Below are positions 15,501 to 18,141 of a stretch of 18,141 nt of DNA, in pieces. The translations under genes were made by a program, and so were the position numbers. A model generated the notes under the pieces. That model did no database searches. It saw nothing but the letters and a program-made list of their open reading frames with translations, and had not been told where the DNA came from. Location of the stretch: UHGV virus genome UHGV-0189264. One strand, given 5' to 3'. Position 1 is the first letter of the stretch. Each line of letters begins with the position of its first letter. This stretch comes from a virus.

Positions 15501-15824
15501 ATGAAGATGCCAGAAAAACATGACCTGTTAGCCGCCATTCTCGCGGCAAAGGAACAAGGCATCGGGGCAATCCTTGCGTTTGCAATGGCGTACCTTCGCG
15601 GCAGATATAATGGCGGTGCGTTTACAAAAACAGTAATCGACGCAACGATGTGCGCCATTATCGCCTGGTTCATTCGTGACCTTCTCGACTTCGCCGGACT
15701 AAGTAGCAATCTCGCTTATATAACGAGCGTGTTCATCGGCTACATCGGTACTGACTCGATTGGTTCGCTTATCAAACGCTTCGCTGCTAAAAAAGCCGGA
15801 GTAGAAGATGGTGGAAATCAATAA
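15501..15824 (+). CDS. S: Holin S (class I; dual-start holin/antiholin)
   Basis: 107 aa [62 protein letters not shown]...; Met-Lys-Met dual start; three transmembrane segments. Confidence 0.95.
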
Positions 15825-16284
15825 TCAACGTAAGGCGTTCCTTGATATGCTGGCGTGGTCAGAGGGAACTGATAACGGACGGCAGAAAACCAGAAATCAT
15901 GGTTATGACGTCATTGTAGGAGGAGAGCTATTCACTGATTACTCCGATCACCCTCGCAAACTTGTCACGCTAAATCCGAAACTCAAATCAACAGCCGCCG
16001 GGCGCTATCAGCTTCTTTCCCGTTGGTGGGATGCCTACCGCAAGCAGCTTGGCCTGAAAGACTTCTCTCCGAAAAGCCAGGACGCTGTGGCACTGCAGCA
16101 GATTAAGGAGCGTGGCGCTTTACCGATGATTGATCGCGGTGATATCCGTCAGGCAATCGACCGTTGCAGCAATATCTGGGCCTCACTGCCGGGCGCTGGT
16201 TATGGTCAGTTCGAGCATAAAGCTGACAGCCTGATTGCAAAATTCAAAGAAGCGGGCGGAACGGTCAGAGAGATTGAGGTATGA
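15808..16284 (+). CDS. R: Endolysin R (lytic transglycosylase)
   Basis: 158 aa [39 protein letters not shown]..., recognised as lambda R. Confidence 0.95.
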
Positions 16285-16739
16285 GCAGAGTAACCGCGAT
16301 TATCTCCGCTCTGGTTATCTGCATCATCGTTTGCCTGTCATGGGCTGTTAATCACTACCGTGATAACGCCATGACCTACAAAGAGCAGCGCGATAACAAG
16401 GCCAGTGAACTGGAGAAGGCGAACGCCACCATCGCTGACATGCGGAAGCGTCAACGTGATGTAGCAGAACTCGACGCAAGATACACAAAGGAGCTTGCTG
16501 ATGCTAACGCGACTATCGAAAGTCTCCGTGCTGATGTTTCTGCTGGGCGTAAGCGCCTGCAAGTCGCCGCCACCTGTGCAAAGTCAACGACCGGAGCCAG
16601 CGGCATGGGCGATGGAGAAAGCCCAGGACTTACAGCAGATGCTGAACTCAATTATTACCGTCTCCGAAGTGGGATCGACAAGATAACCGCGCAGGTTAAC
16701 TACCTGCAGGAATACATCAGGACGCAATGCCTTCGATGA
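16281..16739 (+). CDS. Rz: Spanin inner-membrane subunit Rz
   Basis: 152 aa with N-terminal transmembrane anchor [23 protein letters not shown] followed by a coiled-coil periplasmic domain. Confidence 0.9.
16495..16686 (+). CDS. Rz1: Spanin outer-membrane lipoprotein subunit Rz1 (embedded in Rz, +1 frame)
   Basis: Signal peptide with lipobox LLGVSAC followed by a proline-rich segment [15 protein letters not shown]; fully embedded in Rz. Confidence 0.7.
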
Positions 16740-16913
16740 TAGCGATAATTTTACTCATCATCCTTCACATTTGGCTCTGTAGGCAGGGTGGTGATCACTT
16801 CTGGAGTGAATCCAGATTAAACATCTCATTGCTGATGCTTGAAGTTGAGCATCTGGCGCGCGGTAAGGGGCTGCGTTGAGATAAGAGCCAGTTCATTACA
16901 AATACCAGGATTT

Positions 16914-16940
16914 AGCCTCGCATTCGCGGGGCTTTTTATA
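16914..16940 (+). terminator. Intrinsic terminator downstream of Rz
   Basis: Stem AGCCTCGC-ATTC-GCGGGGCT (with one G-U pair) followed by TTTTTATAT. Confidence 0.6.
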
Positions 16941-17081
16941 TCTGAATTTCACAGCGCATCTCACGCGCATATTAACGAGAGCCTTTCAGTAAGCGAGCCT
17001 GAGAATTGCCGTTATAGGTGGCGACCTCTCTCGGGCGGCTTTTCTGTGAGACAGGCTCACTTTCTAAAAGGTAAAGACGCT

Positions 17082-17579
17082 ATGAAAGCAATCACGCTTT
17101 TTAATACACCGATCCGTGTTGATGAATCAGGAATGATCTGCCTCACTGATATGTGGAAAGCCAGTGGTAAAAGTGAATCTGAATCGCCTTACCACTACCT
17201 GCGAAACAAGCAGACCAAAGAGTTCTTAGCCGAGCTGGAGAAAAACCACGAATCTGTGGTTTTTACTGAGCGCGGTGTACACGGTGGAACATATGGCGGG
17301 AAGTTTGTTGCATACGATTATGCGGCTTGGTTAAACCCCGGGTTCAAGTACGCGGCCTATAAAGTCCTCGATGACTACTTCACCGGAGAACTTCAGCATC
17401 GCAACAGCTTAAGTGCGCAGCTCAACATGAAATGTCATGAGTTTGACCAGAAGAAAGACATGGCGAGCTTCTGCGGACAAGGGCTGGCAGCATGGCGCTA
17501 TACGAAGCCAGTGTTGGTCGCTGAGATTAACTCCCTGGCTAACCAGCTGCAGATTACGATCCCCGGGCTTCCGGGATGA
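17082..17579 (+). CDS. KilA-N domain protein
   Basis: Start moved to the internal Met (MKAITLFNTPIRVDESGMICLTDMWKASGK...), downstream of the terminator and after RBS AAAGG. The N-terminal pattern fits the KilA-N/Bro-N DNA-binding domain. The 81 codons upstream in the ORF track run through the terminator. Confidence 0.65.
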   Translation: MKAITLFNTPIRVDESGMICLTDMWKASGKSESESPYHYLRNKQTKEFLAELEKNHESVVFTERGVHGGTYGGKFVAYDYAAWLNPGFKYAAYKVLDDYFTGELQHRNSLSAQLNMKCHEFDQKKDMASFCGQGLAAWRYTKPVLVAEINSLANQLQITIPGLPG

Positions 17580-17833
17580 GTGATCGTGTCATTGAATGCG
17601 CCTCCAGAGCGGGGCGCGACTTCTCAGAGTTCATGAAAGGCGAGAAGGGCATGATGGAAGCATTGGCCTCGGTGGATGAGTTTGGCGAGCAGCTGCGCCT
17701 CAACGGCTGTGTCAATCATCACTTTGTTAGCTACATGATGCGGAACTCGATCATGCAGGCATTCATGGACATGGCAAAAGCCGAGAGGAAAGAAGAGCGC
17801 CGGCGTAAGCGAGCGGAAGCAAAAGCGAAGTAG
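17576..17833 (+). CDS. Hypothetical protein (85 aa, basic C-terminal tail KAERKEERRRKRAEAKAK), coupled to the KilA-N gene
   Basis: ATGA stop-start overlap with the KilA-N gene; no family recognised. Confidence 0.5.
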   Translation: MSDRVIECASRAGRDFSEFMKGEKGMMEALASVDEFGEQLRLNGCVNHHFVSYMMRNSIMQAFMDMAKAERKEERRRKRAEAKAK

Positions 17834-18141
17834 CCATTACAAAGCCTATCTACGGGTGGGCTTGATAATGAAACCGGAGTTAATTTCTGGTCACTAATTA
17901 ACAGCAGTACCACGAAACAACCCAAGCCAGTAAGTGGGGAAATAACACTGGCAGCCACTGAAAGATGAACCTCCTGCCTTATGGCAAAAAAGATTCTTTG
18001 TGGTGGCGGACTGATGGAAAGACATCGGTTATTGCAGAGACCATTCAATGAGTGGTCTCGACAATGGCTTATACCCTACACGGGATAACTTAACTGATAT
18101 CCCTTTTAACGGATAAACGGAGCCAACAATGGCAGAGATTA

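Follow-up and report, generated by a model that had tools for sequence, protein, structure and literature searches.

A conserved leader RNA predicted to sequester the Shine–Dalgarno sequence precedes the KilA-N gene pair hkbK–hkbL in an HK620-like phage

The closest functional analogue of the locus described here is found in the C4/IsrK systems, which include c4-icd-ant of phages P1 and P7 and isrK-orf45-anrP of Gifsy-1. In Gifsy-1, the mRNA made by read-through of the isrK terminator is translationally inactive and adopts alternative structures, and the product of anrP is made by translational coupling (PMC4825925). The locus under study lies within an 18,141-nucleotide (nt) stretch of the virus genome UHGV-0189264, hereafter the window, and consists of an intrinsic terminator, a conserved 135-nt leader RNA and two overlapping genes, hkbK and hkbL. 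It resembles the C4/IsrK systems in that an antirepressor-like gene lies directly 3ʹ of a terminator, the read-through mRNA would be kept inactive by its structure, and a second gene is probably expressed by coupling. However, the RNAs are not homologous. The Rfam models C4, c4-a1b1 and isrK (RF01695, RF03163 and RF01394) match Gifsy-1 upstream of anrP, but none of them matches the window, whether the gathering score or E ≤ 5 is taken as the threshold. Likewise, a covariance model of the nested helices of the leader, termed R1, gave no match in Gifsy-1 upstream of anrP. Furthermore, neither a trans-acting small RNA nor a leader open reading frame (ORF) is evident in the window, and the cassette is located after the lysis genes, unlike the C4/IsrK systems, which follow Q or lie in the immI region.

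The slot between lysis and packaging genes is variable, carrying Rha, T5orf172 or KilA-N+P63C genes in other phages, and its content differs among phi80, P22, epsilon34, HK97 and HK620. Coliphage HK620 has the same module in the same order as the window (Rz, terminator, KilA-N gene, 85-aa gene, hkbM), with no substantial difference: positions 16700–18141 are 98.6% identical at the DNA level to 17751–19246 of the HK620 record (NC_002730). HK620 is a P22-like Lederbergvirus, and the window is a close relative that carries the identical module. In HK97 (gp73 and HK97p61), hkbL and the sequence downstream are as in the window, but the KilA-N protein has a C-terminal P63C domain rather than ORF11CD3. 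In phi80 and P22, rha (ORF201 in P22) occupies the same slot after Rz, behind the same terminator and leader, and R1 scores 143 bits in phi80 and 94 bits in P22. Many Rha proteins encoded behind the leader share the C-terminal ORF11CD3 domain with hkbK; unlike hkbK, they have Phage_pRha instead of KilA-N at the N-terminus, and no hkbL-like partner follows. An IHF phenotype is also known only for Rha. The protein was reportedly found by Henthorn and Friedman in 1995 to be inhibitory to phage growth in IHF-deficient hosts, and a note in the phi80 record says the same.

Control by alternative structures or kinetic folding is known from the lambda cIII mRNA (Rfam Lambda_thermo), the MS2 maturation-gene leader and the hok mRNA. 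The leader resembles these RNAs in having two predicted, probably exclusive folds, one of which occludes the Shine–Dalgarno sequence (SD), and in a nascent fold that differs from the equilibrium fold, features that suggest a switch. It has no sequence or structure homology to them (no Rfam match). A search of the window leader against Rfam 15 returned no family with either threshold (gathering score, E ≤ 5), and no description of the leader was found in the searchable literature, including by its sequence strings, although an older description may exist. The small RNAs Pas, AgvB and AsxR and the lambda PreS and LPR RNAs were considered and rejected; they are located near Q and the holin gene or in the early operon. 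Judged from its sequence, the leader is probably an SD-sequestering cis-regulatory leader, of a family absent from Rfam 15. The reading we favor, and consider reasonably probable, is that of a four-part cassette (terminator, 135-nt leader, hkbK and coupled hkbL) that lies within the late operon of a phage of the HK620 type. Its features are the following.

16914–16940, + strand: intrinsic terminator, AGCCTCGC-ATTC-GCGGGGCT followed by TTTTT
16950–17084, + strand: conserved structured leader RNA, 135 nt, ending in the hkbK ATG
16954–16957 with 16965–16968, + strand: leader hairpin P1, GCGC-loop-GCGC
16976–16981 with 17028–17033, + strand: leader helix A/Aʹ, CGAGAG/CUCUCG
16982–16989 with 17064–17071, + strand: leader helix B, which includes the SD, AAGG, at 17068–17071
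16995–17001 with 17052–17058, + strand: leader helix C
17002–17005 with 17042–17045, plus 17008–17011 with 17036–17039, + strand: leader helix D
17082–17579, + strand: hkbK, ATG at 17082, stop at 17577–17579, 165 aa
17576–17833, + strand: hkbL, 85 aa, its ATG overlapping the hkbK stop as ATGA, ending in ...KAERKEERRRKRAEAKAK

The gene calls of unrelated slot proteins (P0138 and P0139) and the long ORF of the window share an identical, spurious N-terminal extension, and for this reason the upstream regions were aligned. The terminator and the next ~140 nt are kept in front of different genes: hkbK in the window and HK620, gp73 in HK97, T5orf172 genes in Salmonella and E. coli prophages and in epsilon34, and rha in phi80, HK106, HK639 and P22. 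The 45 unique leaders have one architecture, in which the terminator is followed by P1, a ~95-nt hairpin and, 9–13 nt on, an ATG. In the basal helix of this hairpin, CCUUUCAG is paired with CUAAAAGG, the latter containing the SD, and the position of the ATG 9–13 nt past the basal helix and SD is invariant in 27 diverse sequences. The leader subtype is present in 168 phage records. Additionally, of 5426 complete E. coli genomes, 953 (~18%) contain the leader, beside genes with the annotation Rha family, GIY-YIG nuclease or KilA-N, and it occurs in Shiga-toxin (Stx) phages. When Pfam families were counted in 38 representative downstream proteins, the commonest were Phage_pRha (14), ORF11CD3 (12) and KilA-N (11), followed by T5orf172/MUG113 (3), P63C (2), HNH_3 (2) and the P22-antirepressor type, P22_AR_N and ANT (2). 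The cargo that Pfam can classify is thus mostly drawn from the Bro network. In a Klebsiella phage, the leader, a KilA-N gene and hkbL lie within a tail/immI-like region; therefore, the leader moves with its cargo, independent of Rz.

In some phages the leader is present twice, each time before a different gene. The copies in an Stx2a phage (L218, 1156–1293 and 2522–2660) precede a Rha-type gene and a gene whose N-terminal sequence places it in the P22-antirepressor (P22_AR_N/ANT) class, and those in phi80 (L217, 1836–1970 and 3430–3547) precede rha and an N15 gp59-like ORF. Further loci with two copies or with a shorter variant are L059, L041, L050, L053, L079, L220 and L232; the shorter variants (115–118 nt) lack the apical E hairpin. 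The annotated rha starts lie inside the leader, at 1576 in P22 (L340, leader 1505–1647) and at 1932 in phi80 (L217, the copy at 1836–1970), which is 69 nt and 36 nt, respectively, 5ʹ of the leader's invariant SD-ATG. To judge from these positions, the annotated Rha proteins of P22 and phi80 probably extend too far at the N-terminus. A similar spurious extension is found in many gene calls for homologues of hkbK (213–217 aa) and in the ORF of the window that begins with TTG at 16839.

The nested helices of the leader are maintained by compensatory changes. R1 scores 140.6 bits on the window leader and gave 108 hits in 100 loci. In the resulting alignment, 95.4% of cells fall in standard pairs and 22 of 26 pairs show double-sided (compensatory) changes; with the 3ʹ partners slid by 1–3 columns, only 3–8 pairs do so and 33–50% of cells are paired, and none of 500 shuffles reached the observed values. 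As this alignment is fitted to the model, the count was repeated on a structure-naive MAFFT alignment of 27 diverse leaders. Here, 84.5% of cells are paired versus 33–51% after sliding, and double-sided changes occur in 21 of 32 pairs versus 8–11. RNAalifold on a plain MAFFT alignment was abandoned in favor of covariance models, misalignment having left two helices. In helix B, all five pairs (columns 54–58 with 157–161) have double-sided changes, and 92.5% of cells are paired. The covariation-backed pairing thus includes the SD of the downstream gene, and 35 of 42 full-length minimum free energy (MFE) structures have half or more of the SD in pairs. The paired positions hold 133 GU or UG but 27 AC or CA combinations, which places the structure on the + strand RNA. 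Moreover, the leader is non-coding, since its lengths are spread over the three mod-3 classes and in-frame stops interrupt 86 of 101 leaders.

These counts bear on whether the conserved segment acts as DNA, for example as a recombination linker for module exchange or a protein-binding site for a factor such as IHF, with its RNA structure incidental. Such a role would fit the clustering of mosaic breaks at the leader edges (16914 and 17000), the occurrence of identical leaders before unrelated cargo and the inhibition by Rha in IHF-deficient hosts noted in the phi80 record. However, a linker predicts conservation rather than the compensatory changes found in both alignments, the structure-naive one included, and the excess of G-U over A-C is expected only for + strand RNA. 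We regard a DNA-level role as highly improbable.

In addition to the nested helices, a second pairing crosses helices B, C and D. The six nt of A, directly 5ʹ of the hairpin base, complement Aʹ in the apical loop. An A–Aʹ duplex of 5–9 bp can be formed in almost all of 60 distinct combinations of A and loop, and at least 12 different complementary pairs occur, among them CCCGAG/CUCGGG, CACAGAA/UUCUGUG, CCAAGAG/CUCUUGG, CGUCGA/UCGACG, CACCGA/UCGGUG, CCCAGAG/CUCUGGG, GAAAG/CUUUC and CGAUA/UAUCG. Pairing of A with its own loop amounts to −10.2 kcal/mol, compared with −7.0 ± 0.3 kcal/mol for permuted partners (0 of 2000 permutations). Double-sided changes are seen in six of six A–Aʹ pairs in the MAFFT alignment and in five of six in the model-based alignment. 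The linker between A and B measures 0–2 nt in most leader variants. Because A abuts B, coexistence of the two helices is unlikely, and A–Aʹ and the SD-burying helix B are probably mutually exclusive. A–Aʹ is present in the MFE structure of a transcript ending after Aʹ for 29 of 42 leader types, but in none of the 42 full-length MFE structures, and in the window the long hairpin has −46.7 kcal/mol versus −34.6 kcal/mol with A–Aʹ forced. From this difference between truncated and full-length transcripts, we infer sequential folding. A–Aʹ may exist only transiently, for kinetic reasons, may combine with C and D into a pseudoknot in which the SD stays free, or may be selected by a factor.

The same hairpin might instead be a static element of processing or stability, such as an RNase III site or an mRNA stabilizer formed by its imperfect ~28-bp stem, that divides the late mRNA into a lysis segment and a downstream segment. 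A–Aʹ would then belong to one fixed, pseudoknotted fold, and hkbK translation would be affected only secondarily, or even be activated after cleavage. RNase III sites are known from phage leaders, including those of lambda N, lambda cIII and the T7 early mRNAs. The hairpin is long and imperfect, is kept with compensatory changes and always follows a terminator at the boundary of a gene block; moreover, a structured region after hkbL (z −6.3, described below) suggests a late mRNA rich in RNA structure. A static element does not, however, account for the placement of the basal helix exactly on the SD, with the ATG invariantly 9–13 nt behind it, nor for the company of the leader, which accompanies mostly Bro-network cargo, even in the Klebsiella tail region, and not the lysis genes. 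The short A–B linker would also make a single fold with both A–Aʹ and B–Bʹ sterically unlikely. On balance, we think this explanation rather unlikely, although it is the strongest of the alternatives to a regulated leader.

The first element of the cassette is the terminator. It was placed by the terminator scan at 16914–16937 and has an 8-bp stem (6 G-C), a 4-nt loop and a run of five T, with a hairpin free energy of −14.1 kcal/mol; as a G+C-rich hairpin followed directly by a T-run on the transcribed strand, it is an intrinsic (Rho-independent) terminator. A hairpin and T-run of strict definition lies at most 75 nt 5ʹ of 93 of 104 distinct leaders, and several of the others have an imperfect one. 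On the + strand between the terminator and hkbK (16941–17081), a consensus scan found no sigma-70-like promoter, although a weak promoter could escape such a scan, and the 45 aligned leaders contain no conserved −35/−10 hexamers; the segment between the terminator and P1 is variable or absent. A scan of 17834–18141 found no + strand terminator after hkbL, where a hairpin at 17835–17870 lacks a T-run. Lambdoid late transcripts start from pRʹ, depend on Q and run through the lysis genes into the head genes (PMC2629481). In the HK620 record, pRʹ, qut and tQ are annotated 5ʹ of S. Since no terminator follows hkbL, transcription would continue into hkbM and the terminase genes. The structured, SD-burying leader points to tightly controlled expression from the late operon rather than expression in the lysogen.

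The initial annotation had proposed a moron, that is, a pair with its own promoter in 16941–17081 that the prophage expresses to the advantage of the lysogen, by BstA-like exclusion or abortive infection or by host interaction, with the terminator as insulation. Morons typically have a terminator on their upstream side, and the content of the slot varies. As to defence, BstA defence proteins contain KilA-N domains (PMC8585504). PADLOC gave a weak match of hkbK to the candidate PDC-S22 (E 6.8e-9) that covers ~30 residues at the level of the KilA-N domain. This match is the extent of the backing for a defence role, which was not borne out otherwise: hkbL has no PADLOC match, and hkbK has ORF11CD3 in place of a BstA-type C-terminal domain and lies in a late operon, not at a repressor locus. 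The bstA gene of BTP1, by comparison, is said to lie beside the repressor locus, outside the late operon. Moreover, two of three features of a moron, its own promoter and its own terminator, are missing here, no promoter-like hexamer pair being found on the + strand, and what is conserved upstream of the pair is a base-paired RNA in which the SD is buried. The pair is thus probably not a self-contained moron, and we judge independent prophage expression quite improbable, more so than a static element.

The first protein of the pair, hkbK, consists of two domains. KilA-N (PF04383) matches residues 7–101 over profile positions 6–106 of 107 (E 6.6e-16, 58.5 bits against a Pfam cut-off of 23.8), and ORF11CD3 (PF10549) matches residues 109–161 over the whole profile, positions 1–54 of 54 (E 2.4e-13, 50.5 bits against 25). 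ORF11CD3 is named among the domains of the Bro network, a Bro/KilA/Rha domain-shuffling network that includes antirepressors (PMC10111431). On the strength of these domains, hkbK is probably a Bro-network DNA-binding protein, and the link to regulators and antirepressors that had been suggested holds to the extent that antirepressors are members of the same network. The protein matches phrog_129 ("transcriptional regulator"); its matches to PHROG families labelled anti-repressor are distant (E 3e-4 to 6e-4), and Pfam finds no ANT, AntA or P22_AR domain in it. The AF2 model (pLDDT 80.5) has an N-terminal alpha/beta domain, composed of a beta-hairpin plus helices, that is followed by a helical hairpin (86–131 and 134–156). 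As to the APSES-like alpha/beta DNA-binding fold of KilA-N proteins, a Foldseek search of the PDB gave no match with E < 0.1, and the Swi6 N-terminal domain came up only at E 1.8. Homologues of hkbK are limited to Enterobacterales and their phages. Sequence searches of the PDB returned no meaningful matches for hkbK or hkbL, and neither protein matches NCBIfam.

The partner, hkbL, has no Pfam family but belongs to phrog_875 (E 3.2e-54). Its AF2 model (pLDDT 92.5) has helices at 3–20, 26–42 and 48–84, the last a long, basic C-terminal helix. The conserved motifs ECASRAGRDFSEF and GCVNHHFV hold its invariant residues. The family is tiny: clustering at 90% identity gives 138 clusters, none of them below 64% identity to the query and with named sources from Enterobacterales only, and a profile search of 1.84 billion representative proteins found only 20. 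Two proteins place hkbL in a wider context. In P0133 of Oceanisphaera, an hkbL-like N-terminal domain is fused to a T5orf172/MUG113 GIY-YIG-like domain (hhalign 96.3%), and gp68 of epsilon34, which shares slot and leader with the window, has the same architecture, its N-terminal ~57 residues being homologous to hkbL (hhalign 94.5%). On this sequence relationship, hkbL represents, as a protein of its own, a domain that other phages join to T5orf172. It differs from gp68 in lacking the T5orf172 domain and in having a basic C-terminal helix and a separate KilA-N partner. T5orf172 is a recognized module of the Bro/KilA domain-shuffling network (PMC10111431).

Three other suggestions about hkbL were discarded. 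A metal site formed by C8, C45, H48 and H49 was dismissed, C8 being unconserved in P0122, P0133 and epsilon34 gp68. P0001 (123 aa), which looks like a natural fusion of ORF11CD3 and hkbL, is a frameshifted gene call. T5orf172 proteins of the P0135 type, although they share slot and leader, have an N-terminal domain that is not detectably hkbL-like (hhalign 13%). Imperfect direct repeats (17 and 15 nt, 82–87% identity) connect hkbK 17437–17475 with hkbL 17676–17697; they may be due to chance, or possibly are a trace of shared ancestry of the ORF11CD3 region and hkbL.

The accessory nature of the pair is evident from its mosaic behavior. Among 90 related loci collected with hkbL as query, the upstream ORF is a KilA-N gene wherever it is readable, either of the hkbK type (ORF11CD3, 165 aa) or of the HK97 gp73 type (P63C, 242–251 aa), in a sample that is biased in that hkbL is 100% identical in 80 of the 90 loci. 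A scan of genome contigs yielded only 7 loci. In three loci checked by coordinates, the gap or overlap between the KilA-N gene and hkbL is at most 4 nt. Homology breaks off on the left at ~17000 in 59 loci and at 16914 in 16, and on the right at ~17870 in 48 loci and at 18026 in 17, or else runs on; such sharp breaks are what a mosaic accessory module would show. The window and the phages HK97 and mEp234 are ~97% identical over hkbL and the next 300 nt, and the KilA-N gene differs. The similarity in these phages (L002 and L003 among the loci) begins at 17591, 15 nt into hkbL, and extends to the end of the window, the upstream sequence being unrelated; a recombination junction therefore lies at the very start of hkbL and joins it to a different KilA-N gene, of the P63C type. 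The two-gene accessory module suggested at the outset is thus upheld by the shared movement of the pair, the ATGA overlap and the variable slot. Outside the Rz slot, an Oceanisphaera prophage (L092, 5001–6488) and the Klebsiella phage (L004, 1743–4868) have hkbL-like, T5orf172 and KilA-N+P63C genes among tail genes, beside an Arc/Arc/Bro-N (immI-like) region, a placement that links the module to immunity regions of the antirepressor type.

The surroundings of the cassette comprise the following features.

15501–15824: holin, upstream of the pair
15808–16284: endolysin, upstream of the pair
16281–16739: Rz, upstream of the pair
16495–16686: Rz1, embedded in Rz
16727–16879, + strand: conserved 50-codon ORF, phrog_11822 (E 8.6e-38), near-identical to gp67 of epsilon34
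17834–18132, + strand: structured non-coding stretch of 299 nt between hkbL and hkbM, which travels with hkbL in HK97 and mEp234

The gene order of the HK620 record is S, R, Rz, hkbK, hkbL, hkbM (DUF2560), hkbN and the terminase genes, with hkbK (HK620p38) labelled "KilA-N domain-containing protein" and hkbL (HK620p39) hypothetical. The initial annotation described the sequence correctly, and its interpretation was reasonable, if partly wrong. The lysis genes do precede the pair, the terminator is present after Rz, the KilA-N domain exceeds the Pfam cut-off, the 85-codon ORF with its basic tail overlaps hkbK as ATGA, and the domain search it advised has given KilA-N and ORF11CD3 for the first protein and no Pfam family for the second. 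The absence of the minus-strand bor gene also stands: none is annotated in the HK620 record, and the sole long minus-strand ORF (17731–18048) had zero matches in a PHROG search. The order of Rz, terminator and KilA-N gene was right as well but overlooked the 50-codon ORF between Rz and the terminator, and the 141 nt from terminator to ATG are a conserved structured element, not a plain spacer. The N-terminus of the 50-codon ORF is hydrophobic, and the ORF runs from the end of Rz, which it overlaps, to a point 5ʹ of the terminator; it is unannotated in HK620 and belongs to the context rather than to the pair.

The stretch downstream of hkbL, 17834–18132, is itself highly structured, with an MFE of −101.2 kcal/mol versus −69.9 ± 5.0 kcal/mol for shuffled sequences (z −6.3), and it has no Rfam family. 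Its first hairpin (17835–17870) stops exactly at the commonest mosaic boundary. Mosaic pieces of the stretch occur in 211 phage records, including HK022, HK97, Sf6, epsilon34 and P22, where they lie downstream of rha. The 14 full-length copies are 93–98% identical, a variation too low for covariation testing.

In the cassette reading favored above, hkbK and hkbL would have no promoter of their own and would be transcribed only when Q-modified polymerase from pRʹ passes the terminator during late lytic growth, the terminator excluding unmodified transcription. In the finished transcript, the long hairpin, a structure supported by covariation, would bury the SD of hkbK and keep translation low. 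A–Aʹ, likewise supported as a helix by covariation, is the predicted fold of the nascent transcript and would most likely provide a transient or regulated open state; this state could be limited to a kinetic window, involve a pseudoknot with helices C and D, or be favored by a trans factor, for example RNase III. As hkbL lacks a good SD and overlaps hkbK as ATGA, it would be made by translational coupling to hkbK. The products would be non-essential proteins of the Bro network, a DNA-binding hkbK with a helical C-terminal hairpin and a small helical partner, and most likely regulate DNA functions of the host, of prophages or of competitors during lytic growth, in the manner of an antirepressor or of Rha. 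P1 KilA is toxic, and strict gating would suit the toxicity of such relatives as P1 KilA and Rha.

Several points weigh against this reading. The consensus scan is insensitive to a weak or non-sigma-70 promoter in the leader. The MFE of the window leader is −48 kcal/mol, which as a single sequence gives a modest z of −2.2, and the shuffle statistics overstate independence, the loci being related prophages, mostly from one bacterial order. Only 67–75% of A–Aʹ cells are paired in the alignments (74.6% in the model-based one), a poor alignment that is attributed to a register differing between subfamilies, and part of the support for A–Aʹ comes from duplex searches in each sequence. The choice between an alternative state and a pseudoknot is beyond nested-structure folding. 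With respect to the proteins, biochemical function is suggested by domain names only, and an interaction of hkbK with hkbL is hypothetical; in fold searches, hkbK has no match with E < 0.1 (Foldseek against the PDB) and hkbL finds generic helical bundles only.

A further proposal, which we put forward tentatively and hold with less conviction than the cassette itself, is that the 135-nt element represents an undescribed family of bistable (or pseudoknotted) cis-regulatory RNAs and, together with the terminator, may form a portable "expression lock" on those Bro-network genes of lambdoid phages (Rha, KilA-N, Ant-like and T5orf172) that could be toxic. Expression of the cargo might then require an antiterminated late transcript and, in addition, a leader kept open by A–Aʹ, a part of the proposal that is equally tentative. 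As rha of phi80 and of P22 lies behind the leader, such a lock, if real, would offer a mechanistic handle on the Rha/IHF phenotype.

The genes hkbK and hkbL are ordinary and have been annotated since the HK620 genome was published; it is their control region that matters. An RNA backed by covariation precedes antirepressor-like genes in P22, phi80, HK97, HK620 and Shiga-toxin phages and in ~18% of complete E. coli genomes. If the leader gates translation, it would constitute a reusable regulatory cassette for toxic accessory genes, the annotated rha start codons of P22 and phi80 would be corrected, and the biology of Rha and KilA-N proteins could be tested by unlocking the leader. Moreover, it would represent a second, non-homologous RNA solution, beside C4/IsrK, for the silencing of antirepressor-like genes.

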